Positions 10,661-49,567 of a stretch of DNA of 64,000 nucleotides are shown piece after piece. Numbering within the stretch: position 1 is the stretch's first letter; each line of letters starts with the position of its first letter. The stretch spans positions 221,332-285,331 of the forward strand of contig JBAZBR010000001.1 in the NCBI GenBank assembly GCA_041671325.1. The letters are read 5' to 3'. Source of the DNA: Patescibacteria group bacterium. Lineage in GTDB: Bacteria; Patescibacteriota; Patescibacteriia; PEXW01. A program made the position numbers and the translations under genes. Below the pieces are notes generated by a model. It ran no database searches, was not told where the DNA came from, and worked only from the letters and a program-made list of their open reading frames with translations.

Positions 10661-10862
10661 GGTTGTGGATCCTGTTCCATCTCGCTACCGCTCGATGAAC
10701 AGGGCGAAGGTCAACATGTGAGGTTCCTCGTATGACTCGGGACGAAATACAAGGAAGCCCTTCGTGAGTATACTCAGGGGAAAGTAAAGTCAGTCTTATA
10801 AAAAGGTCCTTCGGCTACGCCTCAGGACGAAAAGTCAAGAAAACTTGACTTTTCGGTTTTTA
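10661..10862 (+). ncRNA. Candidate structured small RNA of unknown class: a GC-rich ~200-nt noncoding island ending in its own intrinsic terminator
   Basis: No ORF in any frame. GC content is far above the flanks. Several local hairpins, e.g. CCTGTTC...GAACAGG. A strong terminator GAAAAGTCAAG-aaaa-CTTGACTTTTC+GGTTTTT lies at 10828-10862. Confidence 0.3.
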
Positions 10863-11300
10863 TTCGGTTATAATAGTAATTACTATGTTGGTATTCCATG
10901 AACAGCCACACCAAAAAATTCGGGTTTTTGCCGACTTTTCCCTTGGTCAAAACAACCTTAAGCGAGTTATCCCCAAGGCCTTTTTTTGGGCTGGCCGGAG
11001 GTATGATATCCAGTCAGTTAACCTGGTTTACCAGCGCAGGCGAGGGGACAAGTTTGACTGGTGTTTTGCAGTTTCTGATTTGGCCAATGCTTTTGTCCTG
11101 GCTTTTAACCCTGAAAGCCTGGAATGGACTTTAGATGAAGTCCAAGGTGGATAAAAAAACAAGGACCCGCTCCCTCACAAAGCAGATCCTCTACCGCCCT
11201 CTTTGATGGCCTTTGGGGTATCCCCCCTCTTCTGTAAGGCCTAAGAAGGCAAGTTCAAAAGATCTCAATTCCATTATAGTTAGAGATTTTTACAAGTCAA

Positions 11301-11408
11301 ACCCCGCACCACTTTCTAAATAAATATTGATTTTAATAAATCTAAGATATTATTTCTGTGAATTTCTTAAAAATTAAAAAGTAATTTTCATAGAAAGTGG
11401 TGCGGGGT
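11301..11408. repeat. Perfect 18-bp inverted repeat (ACCCCGCACCACTTTCTA / TAGAAAGTGGTGCGGGGT) around a 72-bp AT-rich spacer; MITE-like or long hairpin
   Basis: Exact reverse-complement arms read directly at 11301-11318 and 11391-11408. Confidence 0.5.
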
Positions 11409-11439
11409 CAACCCCATAAAGTTATGCTCTTATAAATAA

Positions 11440-11470
11440 AAAATCGGCCTGGTTTAATAAGCCGATTTAG
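11440..11470 (-). terminator. Terminator for the minus-strand gene 11508-11891
   Basis: AAATCGGC...GCCGATTT stem, with a T-run on the minus strand. Confidence 0.5.
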
Positions 11471-11507
11471 ATGGTAGATTGCTTATTTGACGCAATTCAC
11501 TAAGGTC

Positions 11508-11891
11508 TTATTCTGGCAACACTTGTCCCTTCGTGCATAATAATTCGTTTTTCCTTAAGGGAGACATTTGGTAAACGATCAGGCTTAATATGGTTCCCAT
11601 GAACAAGCAGGTGATGCCGACTGGCCAATGATTCCAGATGCCTATTTCGTGGCCTCCGTACAAAAAGCAGTGGACAGCGGCCAAAATCAGACTGGTTATA
11701 AAAACGACTCCGGTTCCAGCCTTGCGGCTTGTCTCACTGTTTCTGATTATGACAGAAGTGATTAGTGCTGTAATCAGGATCAGGCCGGCGAAAAGCCGAA
11801 GTTCCTGCCAATAACCACTCAGCCAGCCGCTGGCCGTAATCACGCTTATGCCAACAATCAAGATCACCAGGAACTTTTGCATTTTGGTCAT
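11508..11891 (-). CDS. Hypothetical small integral membrane protein (4 TM helices)
   Basis: 127-aa ORF consisting largely of hydrophobic helices. Confidence 0.55.
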   Translation of the reverse strand: MTKMQKFLVILIVGISVITASGWLSGYWQELRLFAGLILITALITSVIIRNSETSRKAGTGVVFITSLILAAVHCFLYGGHEIGIWNHWPVGITCLFMGTILSLIVYQMSPLRKNELLCTKGQVLPE

Positions 11892-12036
11892 TATTACCCT
11901 CCAGGGTTAGGCCATGAAAAGTGAACTATTTTGAAATAATCTTAGTAAATTGCCATTGGCTTTGTCAATAAAATTATACAACGCATTGTTCTCCATTTTG
12001 ACCCCGCCAATAGGTTAGAGTCAGGCTATCGGCGGG

Positions 12037-12101
12037 ACGGAGCTCCGCAAAAGCTTTATGATAGGCAAGTGAAATTCCAGCGGAGCTCCGCATGAATTCA
12101 T
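12037..12101. promoter_or_regulatory. Candidate operator upstream of dinB: CGGAGCTCCG at 12038-12047, GCGGAGCTCCGC at 12080-12091, then ATGAATTCAT at 12092-12101
   Basis: Perfect palindromes read directly from the sequence, ending 14 bp before the dinB ATG. Confidence 0.35.
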
Positions 12102-12114
12102 AGATAAATAATAT

Positions 12115-13326
12115 ATGCAAAGAATCGTTTTACACTTTGACATGAATTCGTACTTCGCCTCAGTCGAACAACAGGCGAACCCGTTTTTGCGCGGCCAGCC
12201 AGTGGGCGTCTGTTCAACCATGTCCAGGCGCGGTTGCATAATTGCTTCTTCCAAAGAAGCCAAGGCTTTTGGCGTCAAAACTGGCTGTCGGGTGGCTGAA
12301 GCGCAAATTTTGTGTCCGCAAATAAAATTAGTGGAAGTGGATCCGCCCAAGTACCGGACTACTACCCAGAAAATTTTTGGCTTGTGCAAAGATTATACCA
12401 GCGACATTGAATTATATTCAATTGATGAAGGCTTTTTGGATTTGACTGGACTGGTAAAATCTTTTCCAGAAGCGATTGGCATTGGCCAGCTTATAAAAGC
12501 CAGGATCAAGAATGAAGTCGGGGAGTGGCTGAATAATTCCATGGGTATTGCTTACACCCGCTGGCTGGCAAAATTTGGCAGCGATATTGCGCCCAAAGGC
12601 GGGTTGGTGGTGATTACGCCGGCCAATCGTTTAACATACCTGAAAGGCCGCGAACTGGAAGACGCCTGGGGCATTGCCGGGGCTTTGGCTAGCCGCCTGC
12701 AGGTGCTGGGCATCCAAACTTTAGACGAGTTGGCCAGGTATTCGCCTATTAACCTTTTGGAAATTTTTGGCATAAAAGGTTATGAACTTTGGGCCAATGT
12801 TAATGGCATTGAATTGGCTGGCTTGGCAGAAAAGCAGTTGCCAAAATCCATTGGCCACAGCCACGTTTTGCGCAAAAGGAATCATGATGAAAAGTTCCAT
12901 AAGGCCGTGATCATGCGGCTGGCGGAAAAAACCGGCCGGAGACTGCGGGAAATTGGCTTGGAAGGCCATGGCTTGTATGCCTTTATGAAGCTGGAGGGCT
13001 TAGGGGATTTTGGCGCCAGTAAAAAAGTCTTTAGGCCAATTATCACTACCCAAAGGATTTATAGCCAGACTTTGGAAATCCTGGAGCTGCACCTTAAAAA
13101 GGGCGTACCAACTTTTTTCGCCTTAGGCCTCTTCAATCTCCAACCCAAGTCAAACCAATTAAGCCTTTTTGAAAAGCCTAAATCCGAAGCTTTGGTCAGA
13201 GCATTAGACAGAATCAATAATAAATACGGCGAGGAGGCGATTGTCCAGGGTGATTTGGTGCGTTTAGGTTTTCAACATGTGCCAGACCGGATTGGTTTTC
13301 GGAAGACCGTAGGCTTAGATGACTAA
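12115..13326 (+). CDS. dinB: DNA polymerase IV (Y-family translesion polymerase)
   Basis: N-terminal HFDMNSYFASVEQ, YSIDEGFLD and helix-hairpin-helix and little-finger regions. ~400 aa. Confidence 0.9.
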   Translation: MQRIVLHFDMNSYFASVEQQANPFLRGQPVGVCSTMSRRGCIIASSKEAKAFGVKTGCRVAEAQILCPQIKLVEVDPPKYRTTTQKIFGLCKDYTSDIELYSIDEGFLDLTGLVKSFPEAIGIGQLIKARIKNEVGEWLNNSMGIAYTRWLAKFGSDIAPKGGLVVITPANRLTYLKGRELEDAWGIAGALASRLQVLGIQTLDELARYSPINLLEIFGIKGYELWANVNGIELAGLAEKQLPKSIGHSHVLRKRNHDEKFHKAVIMRLAEKTGRRLREIGLEGHGLYAFMKLEGLGDFGASKKVFRPIITTQRIYSQTLEILELHLKKGVPTFFALGLFNLQPKSNQLSLFEKPKSEALVRALDRINNKYGEEAIVQGDLVRLGFQHVPDRIGFRKTVGLDD

Positions 13327-15582
13327 CTATTTTTGAATCCCAAAAACTTGTAGGTTATTCCCATTCAAGAGATATATTTTTTGTGCACTTTCATCTACGG
13401 TAAAATCTGAGGTCGTGCCTATAGCATCAAGAGCATATTGGTTAATAAATTTCCCGGCTTTAGAAAAGACCGCGATCCGTTTTAAGCCCTTATCTAAAAT
13501 ATAAAGGTTTTGCAGGGTTGTATCAGCCGCGAGCTTGTCTGCAGAAGATAAGGACGGTTCAACGGTTGAAAGCGCTAATTGGACCCTTTGGCCTTGGTTG
13601 AATTTCATAACCTCGCCTTGGTTAGTGAGGACATATAAGGAACCGTCAACGGAAAGATCAGTGGCGTTATTTAAAGTTTGGCTTTGTTTGAGCCAGTTTA
13701 CGGCTTTGTAGCCCGTACCTTGACGAGTAGCTTTCAAGATTAGGTTATTCGCTATATCAATTGAATATAAAGCCGTATTATAGGTTGCAAAGCCGGCCAA
13801 ATTAGCGTTTGCGTTTGGCAAGACTAAACTAAGCCGAGTGCCTTTAGTCGAACTTGGTTTTTGTTCAATAATTTCAAAACCAGAAGTTAAGGCGATTAAA
13901 CTACCGCTGCCAAAGGTTGATAGTTCCGTAATGTCAGTATTGCCAGGCAAGGTGGCTAATTCTTTAACTTCGCCCGTGGCGCTGCTTATGGATATAAGCT
14001 GATTATTATTAGCATTAATAGTGAATAAATTTTTTCCTAAAATTACTAGACCATTTCCATTAACCCCCGTTTTAAATGTGGCTAAAGTTTTGATTTCGGG
14101 CTTAATTTCATGTCTGGTTTTTACCAAGACCGCTTCAATATCAGCAAGTAATGTTGTTTGTTGAGTTTTTTGGGATTTCGATTTATTTGGCAAGTTATTG
14201 GTTAATTTTTTTGCTTCTGTTAAAAGAGTTTTTGCCCGATCTTCGTCACCGTAAAGTAAAGCAGATCTGGCAGATTCAATATTGCTTTGAATAGTCGAAA
14301 TTGAATTTTGGGTTGTCTGGTTGCTGCTTGAGCGTTGGCGCTGTATACCGGCGACGATTAAAACAATTGCTAAAATCAGCGCAATTGTAATCGTGCTTAA
14401 AAAAAGCATCCTAGATTTTTGAGGCAGGCCTTTAACTGAATTTACCTGCCTTTCAATGGCCACTGGAATTTGCTGAGGGGTTTTTCTTAGGTTATTGCCT
14501 AAGGAACGTATTGAGTGGATTAATTTAGGCGTTGCCTGTATAGCTTGACGGCTCCTTTGCCAAACAAATCTTGGAATTTTACTAAGAATTGTCCTTCTAA
14601 TCTCTTTAGCCACTAAACGGGAATGAGAAGGCGACAATACTTGACCTTTTCGAACTTGGTTTTGTTTTTCAAAAATTGTATTTTCATTTTCTAAAGCAGA
14701 AGAAATCCGGGTTGGTTTTCTTAAAACCCAAGCTCTGAATAATATTTTGGCTTCTCGGAAAAACCTTTTTCCACTTTTTTTTACCGTCGGCCAAAGTGAA
14801 GGCGTAAGTAATTCTTGAGTTTGGGCGTTTTGAGCCAGCATATTATCGATAGATTTTTTAGGCGCACCGGCAATATTTTGTATTAGTTGTTGTTCTTGGG
14901 AAGCAGGCGATGAAATTGCGACATTTTCACCGCGCAATATAATCGAAGCAAAAGCCGAACGAGTTGGGTCCTGACGTAAAATTTCTTCAAAAAATTCAGC
15001 AGCTCCGCCTAAAGGTGTTTCGGCAATCGTCCTTCTTAGTTTTTCAATTGAAAAATAATCAAGCACATTTGAGGTGCTAAAAAAGATTGCGTCACTGTTT
15101 TTTATTTCACCAGAAGCAATTGAAGCGAACATTTTTATAGGATTGACCTTTTGAAGTCGATTTTGCTTACCTAACAAATCAATGACTTTTTTTTCATGCA
15201 TTAACAAACCTAAAATTTTGCCGGTATCAGCAAAATGAAGTTTTTCTTCAAGGATTGTAAATATTACCATTGAAAAATTATCAACCCAATCAGAACCAAA
15301 ATCACTTATCAATTCACCTAAGTAACGGTTGCAGGCTTGGATTGTGTGTTCAAAAGCGACCTCGGGATTAACCTCCGGAGAGGTATAATAAGCAGCTTTC
15401 AAGAAGTCTTGCAAACGGCTTAATAATTCTTGGTTAATTCGGTCAGCAGAAGTAATTTCGGCCAAAAAACCCAGTTTTCCCAAGATCCTTTCTTCAGCCG
15501 GGCTTGGTCGGGCTATAAAGACATGAGCCGTCGCCCGGCTGTTGGTAGCGTCGTATATGAGTAATTTTTCGATTTTATTCAT
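13327..15582 (-). CDS. Large membrane-anchored protein: N-terminal cytoplasmic domain, a single TM helix and a C-terminal extracytoplasmic beta-propeller-like repeat region
   Basis: 751 aa. TM segment LFLSTITIALILAIVLIVAGI. The C-terminal half has repeated blade-like segments (NHL/PQQ-like). The N-terminal domain could not be assigned. Confidence 0.55.
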   Translation of the reverse strand: MNKIEKLLIYDATNSRATAHVFIARPSPAEERILGKLGFLAEITSADRINQELLSRLQDFLKAAYYTSPEVNPEVAFEHTIQACNRYLGELISDFGSDWVDNFSMVIFTILEEKLHFADTGKILGLLMHEKKVIDLLGKQNRLQKVNPIKMFASIASGEIKNSDAIFFSTSNVLDYFSIEKLRRTIAETPLGGAAEFFEEILRQDPTRSAFASIILRGENVAISSPASQEQQLIQNIAGAPKKSIDNMLAQNAQTQELLTPSLWPTVKKSGKRFFREAKILFRAWVLRKPTRISSALENENTIFEKQNQVRKGQVLSPSHSRLVAKEIRRTILSKIPRFVWQRSRQAIQATPKLIHSIRSLGNNLRKTPQQIPVAIERQVNSVKGLPQKSRMLFLSTITIALILAIVLIVAGIQRQRSSSNQTTQNSISTIQSNIESARSALLYGDEDRAKTLLTEAKKLTNNLPNKSKSQKTQQTTLLADIEAVLVKTRHEIKPEIKTLATFKTGVNGNGLVILGKNLFTINANNNQLISISSATGEVKELATLPGNTDITELSTFGSGSLIALTSGFEIIEQKPSSTKGTRLSLVLPNANANLAGFATYNTALYSIDIANNLILKATRQGTGYKAVNWLKQSQTLNNATDLSVDGSLYVLTNQGEVMKFNQGQRVQLALSTVEPSLSSADKLAADTTLQNLYILDKGLKRIAVFSKAGKFINQYALDAIGTTSDFTVDESAQKIYLLNGNNLQVFGIQK

Positions 15583-15643: not shown

Positions 15644-16204
15644 ATGCTAGAAGAAATTTTTGGCTCAAACACTCGATATGCCCTTTTAAGGCTGCTGATT
15701 TTTAATCCCAGCAAAACCTATCAAACTACCGAGTTAAGTAAAAAAACCGGTTTGAGTCTGGCGTCCATAAGGGCAGAAATTAAACGCCTTGAACAAAGTG
15801 GATTAGTTAGGGTTAGTGAACAGGATAATGTTAATTTAGTCCAGATAGATCCGCAAAACCCATTATTTCCAGAATTGCGCGCTTTATTTTTGAAGGCGCA
15901 AATTTTGACTGAATATAATTTTGGAAAAAAACTTTTAAAAATTGGCAGTTTAGCTTATGCTGCCTTAACAGGATATTTTACTAATATTCCAGAAGCCAAG
16001 ACAGATATTTTCATTGTCGGTACGGTCAACCGTTTAAAATTGAGAAAATTAGTAAGAAGGTTTCAAAAAGACATGGACCATAGCTTGCGTTATACGGTAA
16101 TGTCAAAAAAAGAGTATCAATATCGTAATGATATTACTGATCGGTTTTTATATGATATTATTGAAAACCGAAAAATTGTTTTAGTTGATAAAATGCCTAA
16201 ATGA
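15644..16204 (+). CDS. Winged-helix DNA-binding protein with a C-terminal nucleotidyltransferase-like region (hypothetical regulator)
   Basis: N-terminal LLRLLIFNPSKTYQTTELSKKTGLSLASIRAEIKRLEQSGLV is typical of a winged HTH. Confidence 0.45.
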   Translation: MLEEIFGSNTRYALLRLLIFNPSKTYQTTELSKKTGLSLASIRAEIKRLEQSGLVRVSEQDNVNLVQIDPQNPLFPELRALFLKAQILTEYNFGKKLLKIGSLAYAALTGYFTNIPEAKTDIFIVGTVNRLKLRKLVRRFQKDMDHSLRYTVMSKKEYQYRNDITDRFLYDIIENRKIVLVDKMPK

Positions 16205-17052
16205 AGGAAACAATTTTCCTGTTGATCATTGCCGAATCCACCAAATTGATAATTGTAAAAAAGCAAGGCAATAAACTTTTTAGCAAGACAAAAACTGCAG
16301 ACTTGTTTAAAAATGCAGATTCTTTGACTTTAATCAATCAAGTTTTTAAACTACAGAAAAATCAAAAATTAAACGGAATATTTTTAAGTATAGAAAAGCA
16401 AAGCTTTTCTTCAACTCGTGCCTTGGTGAGCATAGCCAATGCCTTGGCTTACGCATATAATTGTAAAGCCGTGGAGTTAAAAGTTTCTCTACCAAGCTCC
16501 CAAATTTCAAAACTTTTTACTCTTGGCAAAAATGAATTGTCCAAAACCATTACGCAATTTATTAAACCCACATACCTTAATTTGCCTAATATTACTAAAC
16601 CCAAATTAAAAATTAACGAATTTCATATTTGTTCGGGGGCATTAGTTTATGATCAAGTAAATAAAAAGTTTCTATTTATCAGACGAAAAGATACCAAAAA
16701 AATTGGTTTACCTAAAGGCCATCAAGAAAAGAATGAGAATTTAGGCTTTACCGCTAAAAGAGAAGCTGGCGAGGAAACTGGGTATTCTGATTTAAAATTA
16801 ATCGGTAAATTGAAAAGTATAAAATATAAATTTACGGTAAAGGGCGAGTTACATGAAAAAACCGAACACCAATTTTTATTATTATTGAATTCTTCTAAGA
16901 CAAAAAATAGGTTAAGCACCGGTGAAGTAAAAAATTTGGATAACCTGTGGCTTACGCCACAACAAGCTTTATTAGATCCGAATTTGTATCCAAATTTACA
17001 GGATACAATAAAAAAGGCTATTTTTATCTTGAAAAAACGAAATTTATTTTAA
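16201..17052 (+). CDS. Fusion protein: TsaB/YeaZ-like N-terminal domain plus C-terminal Nudix hydrolase domain
   Basis: The N-terminus aligns to TsaB (IFLLIIAEST...; EKQSFSSTRALVSIANALAYAY against GPGSFTGLRIGI..A.GLA). The C-terminus carries the Nudix box GHQEKNENLGFTAKREAGEETGY. Confidence 0.55.
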   Translation: MKETIFLLIIAESTKLIIVKKQGNKLFSKTKTADLFKNADSLTLINQVFKLQKNQKLNGIFLSIEKQSFSSTRALVSIANALAYAYNCKAVELKVSLPSSQISKLFTLGKNELSKTITQFIKPTYLNLPNITKPKLKINEFHICSGALVYDQVNKKFLFIRRKDTKKIGLPKGHQEKNENLGFTAKREAGEETGYSDLKLIGKLKSIKYKFTVKGELHEKTEHQFLLLLNSSKTKNRLSTGEVKNLDNLWLTPQQALLDPNLYPNLQDTIKKAIFILKKRNLF

Positions 17053-17882
17053 GTATTTACTGAAGCAAGATTTTTGTTGAAAAAATTAAAATTGAAGCGT
17101 TTATTTAATTTTAAACCAATAGCTTTAGAACCCACGATTTCTTCAGGTTTTTTTACTCCTATCCAGGAAGATGTAACTTGGTATCGTAAAGCCAAGCCTT
17201 TTTTGCCAAGCCAAGAATAAACATCTTCTGTTTTTGCGTTTAGAAATTCACCAATAAATGCAATCCCAGATTCCTTTAGTCTTAAGGCGCTAGATTGGCC
17301 TAAGCCTGGCAAAAACCTTATGGGTATTCGGTTTAAGGTCTGAGCATCGTTTTTATCATAAAATTGAAAGCCAGGTTGGCGTAAGGTGAGATTAGCAAGT
17401 TTGGCTAAAGTTGGACTGCTGCCAAAACCAATATTAACTTTGCATTCCAGCTCCTGCCAACAAGCATTTTGGATTTTTAAGAAAATTATTGCTCTTTCAA
17501 TAGATGTAGAGTAGGGAATAGTAAGCAGGATTTCATTATTCTTTTCCATAACAAACTCACCCCATTTTTTTGAAATTTTAATAAAAGCCCTGGAAAAACC
17601 TTTTAAAAAACCGGATTGAATGGGTCTAATTACCAATCGTGGAGTAATTTGAAAAGCTTTTTTTAAACTCATCCCTTTTTTTATGCCAAAGCTTGCAGCA
17701 ATAACATTGCAGTCAACAATAGTCAATTCTGAATTTATATTTTCGATAATTGCCAAAGGGACATTTCTAAATTGCGGATTGAGTGCCTCCTCCACGCTCG
17801 CGGCAAAATGGTTTATAGAAATATATAAATAATGCCTTGGGCTAAGATTTTCGAATGGTTGTTTTGAAGTTTTGTTATACAT
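17049..17882 (-). CDS. Y-family DNA polymerase paralog lacking catalytic carboxylates (ImuB-like), downstream of lexA
   Basis: YISINHFAASVEE aligns to DinB DMDxFFAxVE with both Asp replaced. YSTSIERAI replaces the S(I/L)DE motif. GIGSSPTLAKLA is the HhH region. Only 277 aa. Confidence 0.6.
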   Translation of the reverse strand: MYNKTSKQPFENLSPRHYLYISINHFAASVEEALNPQFRNVPLAIIENINSELTIVDCNVIAASFGIKKGMSLKKAFQITPRLVIRPIQSGFLKGFSRAFIKISKKWGEFVMEKNNEILLTIPYSTSIERAIIFLKIQNACWQELECKVNIGFGSSPTLAKLANLTLRQPGFQFYDKNDAQTLNRIPIRFLPGLGQSSALRLKESGIAFIGEFLNAKTEDVYSWLGKKGLALRYQVTSSWIGVKKPEEIVGSKAIGLKLNKRFNFNFFNKNLASVNT

Positions 17883-18104
17883 AGATAAACTAATATATTT
17901 ATATTCTGTCCTACTAGGTTAGCGTTAAATTTGCTAAGGAATGGTTCTACCAAAATAATTCATTAGATTTAGACGCTCCACCCCGCAAAAAAATTGAGAG
18001 AAGGTATGCCTGCGGGGCGTCACTTAACAAAAGAGCTAAAAAATAAGTGGGTATTTTTTGTAAGTTGAGTGCCGAATTAAAACCGAAAATAAAAATTAAA
18101 AAAA

Positions 18105-18722
18105 TTAATACTTGCGAATTAGGCCAATAACCTTTCCTTGGATAGTAACGTTTTTAACGTCAATAGGCTGATAATTTGGATTTGCCGGTTGAAGCCTAAT
18201 AAAATTTTTCTTACGGAAAAACTTTTTTAAAGTAGCATTCCCGTCATCCAAGAGCGCCACAACCATATCGCCATCTTTGGCTAATTGGGTTTTTTCCACC
18301 ACCACCAAATCACCATCATTTACTAAACTTTCAATCATTGAATCGCCTCTGACTTTCAAGATGTAAGCATTTTTCTTGCCGACTAAATTTTGCGGCACTG
18401 GGATCATGTCCTGCTTATCCTCAAAGGCTTCAATTGGCGAGCCAGCGGCAATAGTCCCAACCAGCGGCAATAAACTTGAAGCAAATTCCAAATCCGGTTT
18501 AAGATCTGGCTCGATAATTTCAATACCGCGCGTATTATTCTTATCTCTTTTTATAAACCCGGATTTTTCCAAAAAAGTCAGGTGTTCATGGACCGTGGCT
18601 AAGGAGGATAAGTCAAAAGCCTTGGCAATTTCCGTTAAAGTCGGGGCATAACCATGCTCTTGCATGTATTTTTTTAGAAAATCCAGAATAGCCCTTTTTT
18701 GTTTGTGTAATATTGGCGCCAT
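18105..18722 (-). CDS. lexA: LexA repressor (SOS regulator, S24 peptidase)
   Basis: N-terminal wHTH (LTEIAKAFDLSSLATVHEHLTFLEKSGFIKR), cleavage-site AAG, and catalytic VRGDSM...K of the S24 domain. Confidence 0.9.
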   Translation of the reverse strand: MAPILHKQKRAILDFLKKYMQEHGYAPTLTEIAKAFDLSSLATVHEHLTFLEKSGFIKRDKNNTRGIEIIEPDLKPDLEFASSLLPLVGTIAAGSPIEAFEDKQDMIPVPQNLVGKKNAYILKVRGDSMIESLVNDGDLVVVEKTQLAKDGDMVVALLDDGNATLKKFFRKKNFIRLQPANPNYQPIDVKNVTIQGKVIGLIRKY

Positions 18723-19039
18723 ATTTGCTATGAATTACGAATAAATACGAATTTTGCTAATTAAGGTAGAAATAGTATAACCGAAATAAAACCGAAAATC
18801 AATTAAAAATACAATAATTTTGAATGTTTTATGAGGTTTATTTATGAAACGTGATTTTTTAACAAAAAGTCCTGTGGATAACTTTTGAAGTTAAAATAAG
18901 CTTAAAATCCGCATTTTAGATTAAACGGTATTGGTGATTATCTGGTTTATGTGGATAAACCGCCTTGACAGCAGGTTTTTTGCACCTTATGCTGTAATTC
19001 CTAAAAAGAGAAAACCAAAAGAGTATTGAACTAGCCAGT

Positions 19040-19408
19040 GGCTAGTCAGATTAAAAAGTCGGTCGGAACATGATTCTGGATCTTCTTCAGCCTTCGGGCT
19101 ACCAATACCCAGAGCGCGGTAGCGTCACTTGTCTAATAGGGCTCACTCCTCTTAAATTAGTTGCGGTACGCGTATTCATGTTTTTTCTGCGGTTTGCCCA
19201 GATGGTTAACCCAGAGAAAGCGCATAGCAAGCGTATATGTTTGCCATTCCCATGAATGGCCAGAGTATCAGGTTTTACCTGAATTGCCCTTTAAAAAAGG
19301 CATTTCAACAGAGGTCAAAACCTGACCTTTGAATGACTAACCGCTTCTAGCGTATTCCAGTCCGACTTGTATGGGGGCCTTCCTTTGCGTCGGCCCCCTT
19401 TTTTTATT
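19040..19408 (+). ncRNA. GC-rich noncoding segment ending in a strong intrinsic terminator (GGGGGCC...GGCCCCC+T8 at 19373-19406). Candidate structured RNA or leader of unknown class.
   Basis: No credible ORF. GC content well above the flanks. The terminator lies ~25 nt upstream of the BadF-type kinase start. Contains GAUUCUGGAU, which resembles the tmRNA 5' region, but no T-arm/CCA is found. Confidence 0.3.
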
Positions 19409-45150: not shown

Positions 45151-46407
45151 ATGCCAAAACTAATTAGTTTAAAAGCGATTGAAATTTTAGATTCACGCGG
45201 TAACCCAACTTTGCAGGTCAAAGCAGATTTTGATGATGGCAGCACTGGTACAGCTGGTGTGCCTTCAGGTGCTTCTACTGGTAGCCATGAAGCTTTGGAA
45301 TTGCGGGACAATGACCAGCGTTTTCATGGTAAAGGCGTCAGGAAAGCTGTTAGTAATGTCAACCAAGAAATCGCCAAAGTTTTAGTGGGTAAGGAAATTA
45401 AAGATTTGAAAAAAATTGATAAAAAACTTTGTACCTTGGATGGTACAAAAAATAAAGCCAGGCTGGGAGCCAACGCCATCTTGGGCGTTTCTTTGGCTAT
45501 GGCCAAAGCTTTGGCCAAAAGCCAAAAACAGCCTTTATATAAATTTTTAATTCAAGAGTATGGATTTAAGCTTGGACAAGTGAAATTTCCCAGGCCAATG
45601 TTCAATGTCATAAATGGCGGCTTGCATGCGGATTCGGGCTTGTCATTTCAGGAATACATGGTCATCCCTAAAACTGGAAATTTTCCAGAAGATGTCAGGT
45701 GCGGAGCAGAAGTTTTTCAAAGTTTAAAAAAATTATTGACAAACAAAAGCCTTTCTACTTTAGTCGGGGACGAAGGCGGTTTCGCGCCGAATTTAAGGTC
45801 TAATGAGGAGCCTTTGCAATTATTAGCTCAAGCCGTGGAACAAGCGGGTTATGAATTAGGCAAGGATGTGGAATTAGGTTTAGATGCGGCGGCAACCCAA
45901 TTACTCAAACCTGAAGGTGCGTACTCCCTGGCTTTGGAAGGCAAGGGCTTAACACCTGAGCAAATGATTGCCTTGTATTTGGAATGGCATAAAAAATACC
46001 ATTTATTTTCAGTTGAAGATGGCTTAGCAGAAGATGATTGGGAAAATTGGCAAGCCCTGACCTCGGGATTAACCAAAGCCAGCATGATGGTAGTCGGTGA
46101 CGATCTTTTTGTGACTAATACAGAAAGATTAAAAATTGGCATTCAAAAGGGCGTTGCTAATTCAATTTTAATTAAAGTTAACCAAATTGGAACTTTGACT
46201 GAAACCATTGAAGCCATAAAATTAGCGCAAAAAAATAATTATCAAGTGGTAGTTTCGCATCGTTCAGGTGAAACCTGTGATAGCACGATTGCGGATTTAG
46301 CCTTGGCAGTAGGCGCAGGCTTTATCAAGTCTGGCTCTTTATCCAGAAGCGAAAGATCCGCAAAATATAACCGTCTGCTGACTATTTGGGAGGAAACCAA
46401 TGGCTAA
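45151..46407 (+). CDS. eno: Enolase
   Basis: AIEILDSRGNPTLQV, SHRSGETCD and other canonical enolase motifs. Confidence 0.95.
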   Translation: MPKLISLKAIEILDSRGNPTLQVKADFDDGSTGTAGVPSGASTGSHEALELRDNDQRFHGKGVRKAVSNVNQEIAKVLVGKEIKDLKKIDKKLCTLDGTKNKARLGANAILGVSLAMAKALAKSQKQPLYKFLIQEYGFKLGQVKFPRPMFNVINGGLHADSGLSFQEYMVIPKTGNFPEDVRCGAEVFQSLKKLLTNKSLSTLVGDEGGFAPNLRSNEEPLQLLAQAVEQAGYELGKDVELGLDAAATQLLKPEGAYSLALEGKGLTPEQMIALYLEWHKKYHLFSVEDGLAEDDWENWQALTSGLTKASMMVVGDDLFVTNTERLKIGIQKGVANSILIKVNQIGTLTETIEAIKLAQKNNYQVVVSHRSGETCDSTIADLALAVGAGFIKSGSLSRSERSAKYNRLLTIWEETNG

Positions 46408-47974
46408 AATAGTTTCGCAAATCAAACCATATTTGCCGGTTGTTTTAGTCGTAATTGACGGTTGGGGAATTGGCAAGCCCGGACCTTGGAACGCCATAAC
46501 CCAAGCAAAGACCCCGAATTATACCTATCTCTTGAAACGCTACCCTAACACAAGCCTTGAAGCTGGCGGGAGGGCGGTTGGTCTTTCTAAAGGCCAAGAT
46601 GGCAATAGCGAAGCCGGGCACATGAACATCGGGGCGGGCCGCGTGGTCTTGCAGGACGAAGTGGAAATTTCACGGGCTATCACGACTGGCGCATTTTTCC
46701 GAAACCCGGCATTCATCCGGGCTATCCGTCATGTCCAGAAGCATAACTCCACTCTTCATCTGATTGGGATGATGGGCAATAACCAAAGTGCCCATGCCAG
46801 TCCCGACCACCTCCTCGCCCTGCTGACCTTTGTCCGACTGATGAGGCTGAAGCATGTAAAATTGCATATTTTTACAGATGGTCGGGACAGCCCGCGTTTT
46901 GCGGCCATCAAGATTTTAAAAATGCTGGAGATGGAGCTAGGGAATACGCGCATTGCTTCGGTTACCGGCCGGTATTATGCCATGGATCGCGCATTGCACT
47001 GGGGGCGCATTAAACAGACATATGACCTACTCACCCTTGGGAGCGGGTTGCGGGCAACCAGCCCAGAAAGCGCAATCCTGGAGGCTTATAACCGGAATGG
47101 AAGTGACGAATTCATTATGCCAACAGCAGTGGTGCCTGAAGGACATCGCCCGAGCGTCGTGAAGGATAATGATTCAATTATCTTCTTTAACTTGCGCAGT
47201 GACCGGGCCCGACAGCTCACCAAGGCTTTCGTACAGCTGGATTTTTCTGGCTTCCGCCGGAAAAAAATTATTAAGAATTTAGTTTTTGTTGCCATGACGG
47301 ACTTTGGGCCAGATTTGCCAGGAGTCCTTTCAGCTTTTCCCAGCCGGGATATTGATGATACATTACCCATGGTTTTAAAAGGCTATAGGCAGTTGTACGT
47401 ATCCGAAAGTGAAAAATATGCGCATATGACCTATTTTTTTAACGGTGGATATGATCACCCCGTGGCAGGTGAAGATCGCGTCTCTATACCTTCACCAAAA
47501 GTGCTGACTTACGATAAACGGCCAGCCATGTCCACGGCAAAAGTCACGCAGTACGTCATTCGCGACCTAAAAAAACAAGCCCACGATTTTATTGCCCTAA
47601 ACTATGCGGCGCCAGATATGGTGGCGCACACCGGGCACATGCACGCGTCGATTAAGGCAGTTGAAGCCGTGGATAAAGGTCTTGGCATATTGGAACGAGC
47701 AGTTCGTAAGGCACATGGTACTCTGATTATCACCGCTGACCATGGTAACATTGAAGAATTGAAAAATATTAGGACTGGCGAAGTTGATACAGAACATTCT
47801 AATACCCCCGTACCTTTTATTTTAGTGAATAAAAATTATAAAAAGTGCAAATTAAGGAAATTTGGGTGTCTGGCCAATATCGCTCCGACCATCCTGGATT
47901 TAATGCAAGTCAGTAAGCCGAAACTGATGATAGGAAAAAGCTTATTAATTAAAAAGCAAAAACATGAATGCTGA
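46400..47974 (+). CDS. gpmI: 2,3-bisphosphoglycerate-independent phosphoglycerate mutase (iPGM), copy 1, GC-rich core
   Basis: VIDGWGIG, GNSEAGHMNIGAGRVV, TADHGN and the phosphatase/transferase domains. GC content of 46480-47750 is clearly elevated. Confidence 0.9.
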   Translation: MAKIVSQIKPYLPVVLVVIDGWGIGKPGPWNAITQAKTPNYTYLLKRYPNTSLEAGGRAVGLSKGQDGNSEAGHMNIGAGRVVLQDEVEISRAITTGAFFRNPAFIRAIRHVQKHNSTLHLIGMMGNNQSAHASPDHLLALLTFVRLMRLKHVKLHIFTDGRDSPRFAAIKILKMLEMELGNTRIASVTGRYYAMDRALHWGRIKQTYDLLTLGSGLRATSPESAILEAYNRNGSDEFIMPTAVVPEGHRPSVVKDNDSIIFFNLRSDRARQLTKAFVQLDFSGFRRKKIIKNLVFVAMTDFGPDLPGVLSAFPSRDIDDTLPMVLKGYRQLYVSESEKYAHMTYFFNGGYDHPVAGEDRVSIPSPKVLTYDKRPAMSTAKVTQYVIRDLKKQAHDFIALNYAAPDMVAHTGHMHASIKAVEAVDKGLGILERAVRKAHGTLIITADHGNIEELKNIRTGEVDTEHSNTPVPFILVNKNYKKCKLRKFGCLANIAPTILDLMQVSKPKLMIGKSLLIKKQKHEC

Positions 47975-49567
47975 ATCATTTGTACCTCGAGTCAGGCCAC
48001 TGGTATTATTAATTTTAGACGGCTGGGGAATTGGCAAGCCTTCCAGAAGCAATCCCTACAGCATTGCTAAATTGCCTAATTATGAAGATTTGATTTTGCA
48101 TTATCCAGCCATAGCCTTGCAGGCTTCCGGTGAGTCCGTAGGTTTACCTTGGGGTGAGATGGGCAATTCTGAAGTCGGCCACGTGAATTGGGTTCGGGAA
48201 AAATCATATACCAAAATCTTCCCAGGATTAACCGGGCAATATCTGACGGCAGTTTTTTCAAAAACCCAGCCTTGTTATCAGCTATCGAAAATACCAAGAA
48301 ACGGAATACCGCCCTGCACCTTATGGGCCTGGTAAGTTCTGGCGGAGTCCACAGTTTTAATGAACATGCTTATGCCTTGATTGAAATGGCCAAGCAACAA
48401 GGCGTGAAAGAACTCTATTTCCATGCTTTTTTGGATGGCCGAGATACGCCGCCAAAAAGCGCGGAAAATTTTATCGGCAAGCTGATAAGCCACATGAAAG
48501 AAGTTGGCTTAGGCAAGATCGCCACCTTAAGCGGCAGATTTTACGCCATGGACCGTGATAATCGCTGGGATAGGGAAGAAAAAGCCTTTAAAGCCTTGGT
48601 CAAGGGTGAAGCGGATAAAAAAGGCCCAGACCCAATTGCTTTAATCCAGCAAAGTTATGCGGTTGGAGTGTATGATGAAGAATTCATCCCAACTGTCATC
48701 ACCAATGAAAAAGGCGAGCCTGTTGGCACTATAAAAGACGGTGATAGTATTATAACTTTTAATTTTCGGCCAGACCGCATGCGGCAAATTACTAAGGTTT
48801 TTACCCTACCAGGTTTTGAAAAATTTGACCGGGGAACGTATTTTAAAGATTTGTTTTTTGTGACCATGACTGAATACGACAAGGACTTGCCGGTTATCGT
48901 GGCTTTTCCGCCAGAAGAAATAAATTACCCGATTGCTAGGGTTATTTCTGATGCGGGTTTAAAGCAAATGCATATAGCCGAAACTGAAAAATACGCGCAT
49001 GTCACTTATTTTTTCAATGGCGGACATGAACAAGCTTATCCCAATGAAGACCATGTGCTCATTCCCAGTCCGCATGTTTCCAGTTATGACCGCAAACCAG
49101 CCATGTCTGTTCGGGAAATCACCGAGAGGTTGGTTAAAGAACTGGCTAAAGGTACCTATGATTTTTATGTCGTTAATTTTGCCAATGCGGATATGGTTGC
49201 CCATACTGGTAATATGCAAGCTACTATTGAGTCTTTAGAAATTTTGGATGAATGTTTAAAACAAGTAGTGGAAGCAGTTTTAGCCATAAATGGCGCTTTA
49301 TATATCACGGCTGACCATGGCAATGCTGAAGAATTAGTAAACATGCAAACCGGCTCGATTGACAAGGAACATTCAACCAGCCCAGTTCCGTTAATCGCCG
49401 TAGCGAATTTTTGGAAAGACACTTCCCCATATATAATCCCAGGCGGCATGTCAGCCCTGAATTCAGCCCAGCCTGTGGGCATTTTGGCAGATGTGACCGT
49501 AACAATCCTGGAAACTTTGGGTTTGCCAGTGCCGGAAGAAATGACGGGCCGAAATTTATTAAATTAA
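47964..49567 (+). pseudogene. gpmI: Second iPGM paralog (native AT-rich composition) interrupted by a +/-1 frameshift near 48186
   Basis: The two overlapping track ORFs 47964-48335 and 48188-49567 together cover a full-length iPGM. The frame changes between GNSEVGHVN and (I/L)GSGKIIYQ. Confidence 0.6.

Follow-up and report, generated by a model that had tools for sequence, protein, structure and literature searches.

What does a polymerase homologue do when it is encoded directly behind lexA and appears to have lost its active site? The question is raised by iPolY, the name used here for a 277-amino-acid (aa) homologue of the Y-family polymerases. It is encoded in a 64-kb window, the whole stretch of DNA that we analysed, which belongs to a contig, 618 kb or longer, of a metagenome-assembled Patescibacteria genome. 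We find that iPolY derives from a DinB-type polymerase, that the catalytic carboxylates, the steric gate and the whole little finger have been lost, and that the palm, fingers and thumb fold has been kept. Reading the minus strand from 18802 to 17049, a promoter is followed by lexA, a 222-bp spacer and the 277-aa open reading frame (ORF); the pairing of lexA with this ORF was described in an original prediction made from the sequence alone:

18774..18802, minus strand: lexA promoter, sigma-70-type, TTGATT-17 nt-TATACT (promoter scan and sequence), with candidate operator copy 1 within its spacer
18105..18722, minus strand: lexA, 205 aa, a canonical SOS repressor with a winged-helix DNA-binding domain and an S24 autopeptidase domain
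17972..18021, minus strand: inverted repeat GACGCCCCGCA ... TGCGGGGTGGAGCGTC in the lexA-iPolY spacer, with no T-run and not an obvious terminator
17049..17882, minus strand: iPolY, 277 aa, consisting of palm, fingers and thumb only, with a disordered tail ending in NFNFF (264-268)

Fold and active site of iPolY

iPolY matched PF00817 (IMS) at 72.5 bits (cut-off 23.2) over residues 23-163, with weak matches to the helix-hairpin-helix (HhH) motifs of the thumb, so that the Y-family fold proposed for it held. Its best sequence matches in the PDB were Dbh, Dpo4 and Pol IV, with E-values of ~1e-15 in HMMER and 4e-22 with a family profile, and on NCBIfam it scored 78.5 bits against the Pol IV model versus 17 bits against UmuC. 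A tblastn search with iPolY against plasmids returned UmuC/DinB matches only, at E 1e-4 to 1e-6, and was uninformative. The protein is unusually short, as had been noticed, and the little finger is absent: we observed no match to PF11799 (IMS_C), and alignment to DinB shows the entire domain deleted.

We modelled iPolY with AlphaFold2 (AF2) from 30 sequences, a three-orthologue version having been unusable (predicted local distance difference test, pLDDT, of 43). The model has a pLDDT of 85, rising above 90 at residues 13-244, and its last structured element is the thumb helix at residues 218-239, followed by ~33 disordered residues (tail, 245-277). The comparison with Dpo4 suggested by the original prediction was made with Foldseek, and matched the model to Dpo4, Dbh and Pol IV at E-values of 1e-18 to 1e-20 and a template-modelling (TM) score of ~0.7, over ~230 aligned columns that cover palm, fingers and thumb only.

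The register of the catalytic residues was taken from HMMER alignments to Dbh, Dpo4 and Pol IV and from a MAFFT alignment with Dpo4, E. coli DinB and the dinB of the window. The alignments were concordant and gave the following correspondences:

Dpo4 Asp7: iPolY Ser22
Dpo4 Asp9: iPolY Asn24
Dpo4 Tyr10: iPolY His25
Dpo4 Tyr12 (steric gate): iPolY Ala27
Dpo4 Asp105: iPolY Asn116
Dpo4 Glu106: iPolY Glu117 (retained)

The claim that DMDxFF has become ISINHF, with both aspartates replaced, agrees with this register in HMMER and MAFFT alike. By contrast, the claim that SIDE has become SIER rested on a wrong register: all alignments pair SIDE with KNNE (114-117), in which the glutamate is kept, and SIER (127-130) opens the next palm helix. 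Because two of the three metal ligands, Asp7 and Asp105, are lost, iPolY is predicted to be a catalytically dead Y-family paralogue. This part of the original prediction stands despite Glu117, because the positions of Asp105 and Glu106 are unconserved family-wide.

An exhaustive HMMER profile search of 1.84e9 representatives returned four clusters (258-277 aa) at E<1e-45; nothing further came before 2e-17, the level at which ordinary DinBs start. In a 90%-identity collection, the family comprises 28 clusters of 261-292 aa, all from Patescibacteria where labelled. The orthologue alignment that had been proposed shows the loss of catalytic residues to be shared by all 28 clusters, with D7 replaced by S, R, K or Q, D9 by W or N, and Y10 by H, and with neither the D105 nor the E106 position conserved; none of the 28 has the catalytic carboxylates or the little finger restored. 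Three family motifs are near-invariant, namely LWHFxASVE, ERAAxF(L/M)xxQxxCWxELEC, which lies on a palm helix, and (I/L)PG(I/L)G. The most conserved of these (LWHF and ERAAxFxxxQxxCWxELEC) do not bring the catalytic carboxylates back.

Loss of catalytic residues together with a C-terminal domain is what would be expected of a decaying duplicate, that is, a functionless truncated dinB pseudogene kept through co-transcription with lexA. We measured a ratio of nonsynonymous to synonymous substitution rates (dN/dS) of 0.08 for an unsaturated pair (dS 0.84), and ratios of 0.08-0.21 in other pairs. These low values (0.08-0.2) argue against decay, as do a length that stays at 258-292 aa in 28 clusters down to ~30% identity, the many family-specific invariant residues and the confident AF2 model. 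In addition, the 3' end of iPolY overlaps a convergent NUDIX-fusion gene by 4 bp, leaving no room for a little-finger remnant. The pseudogene explanation, which we consider extremely improbable, is effectively refuted by dN/dS and by family conservation; iPolY is a maintained family under purifying selection, not debris.

Linkage to lexA and a candidate operator

The repressor upstream of iPolY scored 192.8 bits on TIGR00498 (cut-off 110.95), matched both PF01726 and PF00717, and keeps the Ala93-Gly94 cleavage site, Ser128 and Lys166. We compared the window with related loci drawn from GTDB genomes, JGI, ENA and Logan assemblies. In 16/16 distinct loci, lexA lies directly upstream of iPolY on the same strand, with iPolY identity falling to ~30%. 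Within the window, the direct repeat TTCGG-N6-TTCGG occurs exactly three times versus 0.18 expected, and 0/100 shuffled sequences reached three. All three copies match the motif exactly:

18781..18796, minus strand: candidate operator copy 1, TTCGGTTTTATTTCGG, in the -35/-10 spacer of the lexA promoter
18072..18087, minus strand: candidate operator copy 2, TTCGGTTTTAATTCGG, 18 nt past the lexA stop codon and upstream of iPolY
10852..10867, plus strand: candidate operator copy 3, TTCGGTTTTTATTCGG, in the promoter spacer of imuB-C, a gene described below

In the related loci checked, sites are found again both at the lexA promoter and where lexA meets iPolY, and the promoter geometry, with an operator in the spacer, is kept upstream of lexA in related loci. 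In the main clade of the family, copy 2 ends only 2-4 nt before the iPolY ATG. The site at the imuB-C promoter recurs wherever the contig reaches that gene (L001, L008, L009, L011, L014, L015 and L016, where L-numbers denote the related Patescibacteria loci compared with the window). A direct-repeat LexA-binding motif, with which TTCGG-N6-TTCGG agrees, is reportedly described for Patescibacteria by Sanchez-Osuna, Barbe and Erill (2017), as cited in PMC7739468. TTCGG-N6-TTCGG has the form expected of a LexA operator, and LexA probably binds it.

Promoter and terminator calling in the lexA-iPolY spacer found neither, and the spacer folds no better than shuffled sequence (whole spacer z -1.4). 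Because no promoter was called between the two genes, iPolY is likely to be co-transcribed with lexA. The suggestion that iPolY is tied to LexA is thereby strengthened, the gene lying in the same operon with its own candidate operator copy; judged by this arrangement, iPolY should be made only on LexA cleavage after DNA damage. At several of these promoters (imuB-C in the window, L008, L014 and L015; lexA in L001) the start codon lies 10-21 nt past the -10 box with no Shine-Dalgarno sequence, so the SOS transcripts of the clade look leaderless or nearly so.

An invariant lexA-to-iPolY order, held in every locus across ~30% identity, could also mean that the two products interact. The target of iPolY would then be the C-terminal domain of LexA, the LexA cleavage product or the RecA filament, and iPolY would tune LexA self-cleavage or SOS shut-off instead of working at the primer end, echoing umuD-umuC. 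The arrangement resembles umuDC (Pol V), in which an S24 autopeptidase gene is followed by a Y-family gene under tight LexA control, and the C-terminal domain of the window's LexA scores 66.7 bits on the UmuD model. Moreover, the UmuD' arm of Pol V sits by the UmuC active site (PMC12926913), and the former active site of iPolY has new invariant aromatics (LWHF). However, the upstream gene here encodes a complete LexA with its DNA-binding domain, and the downstream protein is predicted to be dead and is DinB-like, not UmuC-like (78 vs 17 bits). iPolY also lacks the parts of UmuC that contact UmuD', namely its C-terminal region and its little finger, as well as the RecA-NT homology motif, which binds ImuA or RecA, and shared regulation explains the operon adjacency equally well. 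We consider a direct LexA or RecA partnership distinctly unlikely.

The neighbouring ImuB-C and DinB genes and the comparison with ImuB

At lower coordinates of the window, on the opposite strand, lie two further genes, the first of them preceded by the third operator copy:

10845..10874, plus strand: imuB-C promoter, TTGACT-18 nt-TATAAT, lying 10 nt ahead of the start codon; its spacer holds candidate operator copy 3
10885..11154, plus strand: standalone ImuB-C-family gene, 89 aa, with a basic QRRRG patch, FAVSD and a C-terminal Trp in LEWTLDEV
12115..13326, plus strand: dinB, 403 aa, IMS at 134 bits plus IMS_C, with FDMNSYFASVE and SIDE, apparently active

The 89-aa protein aligns end to end with an 84-aa plasmid protein of Geobacter anodireducens (hhalign 95.6%, E 1.1e-8), which a tblastn search with the relative P0227 also found (E 5e-6). 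The gene for the Geobacter protein lies between lexA and that of a Y-family polymerase, and the small protein of that arrangement is a standalone ImuB-C (PMC3765255, PMC6511836). Consistent with this, the conserved C-terminal Trp and basic residues of the published ImuB-C description (PMC3765255) are present in the 89-aa protein. Its family comprises 54 clusters, all from Patescibacteria wherever the source names an organism; matches to PF20114 were weak, and there was no NCBIfam model for it. A direct match to ImuB was also lacking, since hhalign of the family against a single Ralstonia ImuB was negative, in a comparison where Pfam DUF6504 likewise missed the C-terminus of that ImuB. What supports the ImuB-C assignment is thus the Geobacter homologue together with the published definition.

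The DinB of the window shares 39% identity with the Geobacter plasmid PolY encoded after lexA-imuB-C, and carries the clamp-binding motif QLSLF followed by a RecA-NT-like motif, EALVRALDRINNKYGEEAIV; these C-terminal motifs are conserved in the clade. The original prediction had noted an active dinB 5 kb away. Its position and motifs are as described, but it is not an unrelated neighbour, belonging instead to a LexA/ImuB-C/PolY module. imuB-C lies directly upstream of dinB in L008, L009, L011, L015 and L016, and both genes lie no more than 7 kb from iPolY in every locus whose contig reaches that far. On this gene content, the window appears to be a variant of the published LexA/ImuB-C/PolY module plus an added dead polymerase, and lexA, iPolY, imuB-C and dinB would form one small SOS translesion-synthesis module in which iPolY is presumably coupled to DinB and ImuB-C. 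The 89-aa ImuB-C gene, the three operator copies and the loss of the little finger had all gone unmentioned in the original prediction.

A shorter relative of iPolY is found in another Patescibacteria lineage (L016, 8364..8972, minus strand), where a 201-aa protein directly after lexA matches the iPolY family in hhalign (97.5%). All that is left of the fold is the end of the palm and the thumb, with an RRSLFSLF tail; an operator copy precedes the gene, and lexA is divergent from imuB-C and dinB. We interpret it as a further reduction of the same gene.

The closest described counterpart is Geobacter's lexA-imuB-C-polY operon ('GeoPolY-like'; PMC3765255, PMC6511836), which is likewise LexA-linked, with a standalone ImuB-C of ~85 aa. 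It also has an active DinB-type PolY with clamp and RecA-NT motifs, and neither imuA nor dnaE2. The Patescibacteria loci differ in that lexA is followed by an extra, apparently dead PolY without a little finger, not directly by imuB-C-polY; in that imuB-C and dinB form a separate transcription unit 5-7 kb off with its own operator; and in that the operator is a direct repeat. The Geobacter operon is reportedly described in Jara 2003.

We next asked whether iPolY is an ImuB, to which the original prediction had likened it. Five features define ImuB: a PolY core without activity, motifs of the clamp-binding and RecA-NT types, an ImuB-C domain fused to the core, and linkage to dnaE2 and imuA. Little finger, thumb and ImuB-C all persist in the ImuBs that are most reduced (PMC12926913). 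An inactive Y-family core is present in iPolY, and the likeness to ImuB extends to probable control by LexA and possibly to a function as a clamp-binding, non-catalytic organiser of a translesion-synthesis complex. However, iPolY is ~277 aa long and ImuB ~500 aa. No ImuB-C domain is fused to iPolY, the ImuB-C homologue being a separate gene 6 kb away, and inspection by eye and alignment found no RecA-NT motif (ALxxAxDxIxxKYG-type) in its tail, although the neighbouring DinB has one. We compared the iPolY family with a single ImuB, from the imuA-imuB-dnaE2 locus of Ralstonia, and observed no phmmer match and an hhalign probability of 1.7%.

The statement that neither imuA nor dnaE2 lies nearby proved correct for the window and for every syntenic locus. 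With Ralstonia DnaE2 and E. coli RecA as queries, phmmer was run on every stop-to-stop ORF of the window that reaches 80 aa, and found none that is DnaE-like or RecA-like. Pfam searches of ten ORFs of 428-993 aa at 26-64 kb of the window found no DnaE or RecA, the sole ORF above 800 aa being a subtilase. Searches of 251 kb of the window and related loci with Ralstonia ImuA, ImuB and DnaE2 likewise found no DnaE, ImuA or RecA homologue. We therefore reject iPolY as an ImuB orthologue: it has no ImuB-C, little finger, RecA-NT, nearby DnaE2 or sequence affinity to the one ImuB compared, and is closest to DinB/Dpo4.

It could still be argued that iPolY is the true ImuB of a split mutasome, working with a distant DnaE2 and with ImuA or RecA, as in the mycobacterial arrangement of imuA'-imuB and dnaE2. 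An inactive Y-family protein under LexA control is what ImuB is (PMC6511836), and the window covers 64 kb of a much longer contig, so dnaE2 could lie farther off. The elements absent from iPolY are, however, those that contact DnaE2 and ImuA (PMC12926913); neither similarity to the Ralstonia ImuB nor, in the 251 kb searched, a DnaE-like ORF was found; and the neighbour with which it would be co-regulated is an active DinB, a polymerase that makes DnaE2 unnecessary (PMC6511836). We regard this explanation as very unlikely.

iPolY is better described as a PolY-core relative that was inactivated independently, like other inactive PolY groups. These groups (scDinB2-like, gbDinB2-like and the Kyrpidia-type 'split ImuB' with a standalone ImuB-C and DnaE2X; PMC6511836, PMC12926913) are also independently inactivated and occur together with a standalone ImuB-C, often with lexA as well, and the combination of an inactive PolY with a standalone ImuB-C has been termed 'split ImuB' (PMC12926913). 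They differ from iPolY in being coupled to DnaE2 and carrying RecA-NT, whereas here the candidate catalytic partner is an active DinB, and iPolY has neither RecA-NT nor a little finger. A 2026 survey of PolY-based complexes lists 11 module types, and the word 'Patescibacteria' is absent from its main text (PMC12926913). Thus, inactive PolYs, standalone ImuB-Cs and lexA-imuB-C-polY operons are already published. What appears to be new is an iPolY locked to lexA, without little finger or RecA-NT, beside ImuB-C and an active DinB and with no DnaE2; a 2017 study of the Patescibacteria SOS response may already mention it.

Several other features surround these genes. At 15644..17052 on the plus strand, two conserved neighbouring genes run towards iPolY, encoding a winged-helix protein of 186 aa and a NUDIX-fusion protein of 283 aa; a nucleotide-pool sanitiser such as the NUDIX fusion would make sense beside SOS genes. 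A 751-aa protein (13327..15582, minus strand) with no Pfam family, a central membrane segment and a repeat-rich C-terminal half sits between lexA/iPolY and dinB/imuB-C in the syntenic loci that reach that far, and may share their island. Divergent from lexA, a stretch of ~400 nt (18965..19405, plus strand) is free of ORFs and may be an undescribed small RNA. It lies between the promoter match that scored best in the region (TTGACA-17-TATGCT) and an intrinsic terminator (GGGGGCC...GGCCCCC then T7), and two related loci conserve it in part. Scans of the whole window with Rfam, at the gathering threshold, and for tRNA/tmRNA returned nothing; in the region upstream of lexA, a permissive Rfam scan gave a terminator-like match only, and RNAalifold gave no convincing structure. 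Farther away, 46400..47974 and 48188..49567 (plus strand) encode tandem paralogues of cofactor-independent phosphoglycerate mutase (iPGM_N plus Metalloenzyme), a redundancy unusual for a reduced genome.

A possible role for iPolY in damage tolerance

The tail of iPolY bears on how such a protein might be recruited. In the clade of the window, the tail carries NFNFF or NFGLF, resembling QLSLF. In most main-clade iPolYs the thumb is followed at once by [QA]xLP[FL], and [HNR][HL][FY] (e.g. HHLF) is present as well in 13 members. The 201-aa relative has RRSLFSLF, to be compared with QRSLF or QLSLF in the DinBs of the clade, and in MAFFT alignments the main-clade LPF motif falls opposite the clamp motifs of full-length DinBs. 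Such a pattern would be expected from deletion of the little finger with retention of the clamp peptide, and iPolY may bind the clamp through its tail motif. Main-clade iPolYs also have a near-invariant N-terminal peptide, M(N/H)(F/I)F(T/S)(R/K)L, that is missing from the clade of the window, which has the C-terminal NF(G/N)(L/F)F instead; the two may represent a relocated short linear motif. We rejected the N-terminal MNFFTRL as a second clamp motif, as it does not fit the consensus.

Based on the predicted SOS control, the conserved non-catalytic surfaces, the tail motifs and the neighbouring ImuB-C/DinB unit, we tentatively favour, at somewhat less than an even chance, a role for iPolY as a damage-induced, clamp-tethered, non-catalytic accessory or regulatory subunit that assembles with DinB/ImuB-C or gates it. 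DNA damage would lead to LexA cleavage and to production of iPolY from the lexA transcript; iPolY would be tethered to the beta sliding clamp via its QLSLF-like tail motif; and its conserved surfaces away from the active site would assemble with the DinB/ImuB-C polymerase, or gate its access, at stalled primer ends. This job would be comparable to that of ImuB for DnaE2. The minimal damage-tolerance module suggested by the original prediction is thus still the best reading, with a function that we infer from the genes' content and arrangement.

A number of observations weigh against this proposal. iPolY lacks both the RecA-NT motif, which the published inactive PolY groups possess, and the little finger, so the analogy with ImuB is loose. 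Its clamp-like motif is degenerate, has no single fixed position and is unclear in several members. In L014 and L015, ImuB-C is followed by DinB with the same operator and with no lexA or iPolY within 10 kb, and the family search found no full-size iPolY on the long contigs of these two loci. Because ImuB-C/DinB units occur without nearby lexA and iPolY, iPolY is probably an accessory and not an obligatory part of the module. Finally, imuB-C and dinB in the window are ~960 bp apart (11155..12114), with an opposite-strand ORF between them, making LexA control of this dinB uncertain. The 960-bp stretch looks like an insertion, and may have uncoupled dinB from the LexA-controlled promoter.

Within the stretch, an 18-bp inverted repeat occupies 11301-11318 and 11391-11408, and the opposite strand carries a 127-aa membrane ORF (11508..11891); two copies of the palindrome CGGAGCTCCGC (12037-12049 and 12080-12091) are found just upstream of dinB. 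Most related loci have imuB-C and dinB close to each other, while L014 has a different opposite-strand ORF between them.

The occurrence of ImuB-C/DinB modules without iPolY would fit a modulator better than a core subunit, and hence a brake or decoy: an SOS-induced competitor that fills the clamp cleft, and possibly occupies primer termini via its HhH thumb, so as to limit or delay DinB and curb mutagenesis in a small genome. Although predicted to be dead, iPolY keeps the thumb HhH motifs (IPGIGRRTA / LPGLGQSSA) and a clamp-like motif, and its double operator guard is as for a late SOS function. On the other hand, DNA binding should be weak without the little finger, as is generally known for core fragments of Dpo4 and Dbh, and the strong conservation of the WxELEC helix and of LWHF, away from the clamp motif, suggests a specific protein partner and speaks against mere competition. 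We judge a brake to be rather unlikely, if worth keeping in mind beside the accessory subunit that we favour.

In a further reading, iPolY and the standalone ImuB-C would together make up a 'split, minimal ImuB', the hub of a DnaE2-independent mutasome that recruits DinB or the sole replicative DnaE to the clamp at lesions. We think this unlikely. If true, it would be an undescribed twelfth type of PolY-based translesion complex, and palm, fingers and thumb together with a clamp peptide would suffice for the hub function of ImuB.

Polymerase homologues that lack catalysis, ImuB among them, organise mutagenic repair, which in mycobacteria contributes to the emergence of drug resistance, and the mode of action of 'dead' polymerases is still being worked out. 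As judged from sequence, the iPolY family appears to be the most stripped-down dead polymerase found in this comparison, without little finger, RecA-binding motif or ImuB-C. Its conservation is nevertheless strong, and it stays locked to lexA in bacteria that appear to have an SOS regulon of no more than a handful of genes, with three operator-bearing units in the 64-kb window. Should iPolY prove to organise or restrain DinB while tethered to the clamp, the minimal set of parts for that job would be defined, and a DnaE2-free variant would be added to the known bacterial mutasomes. The system is also very small and tractable, with LexA, a 16-bp candidate operator and four genes.

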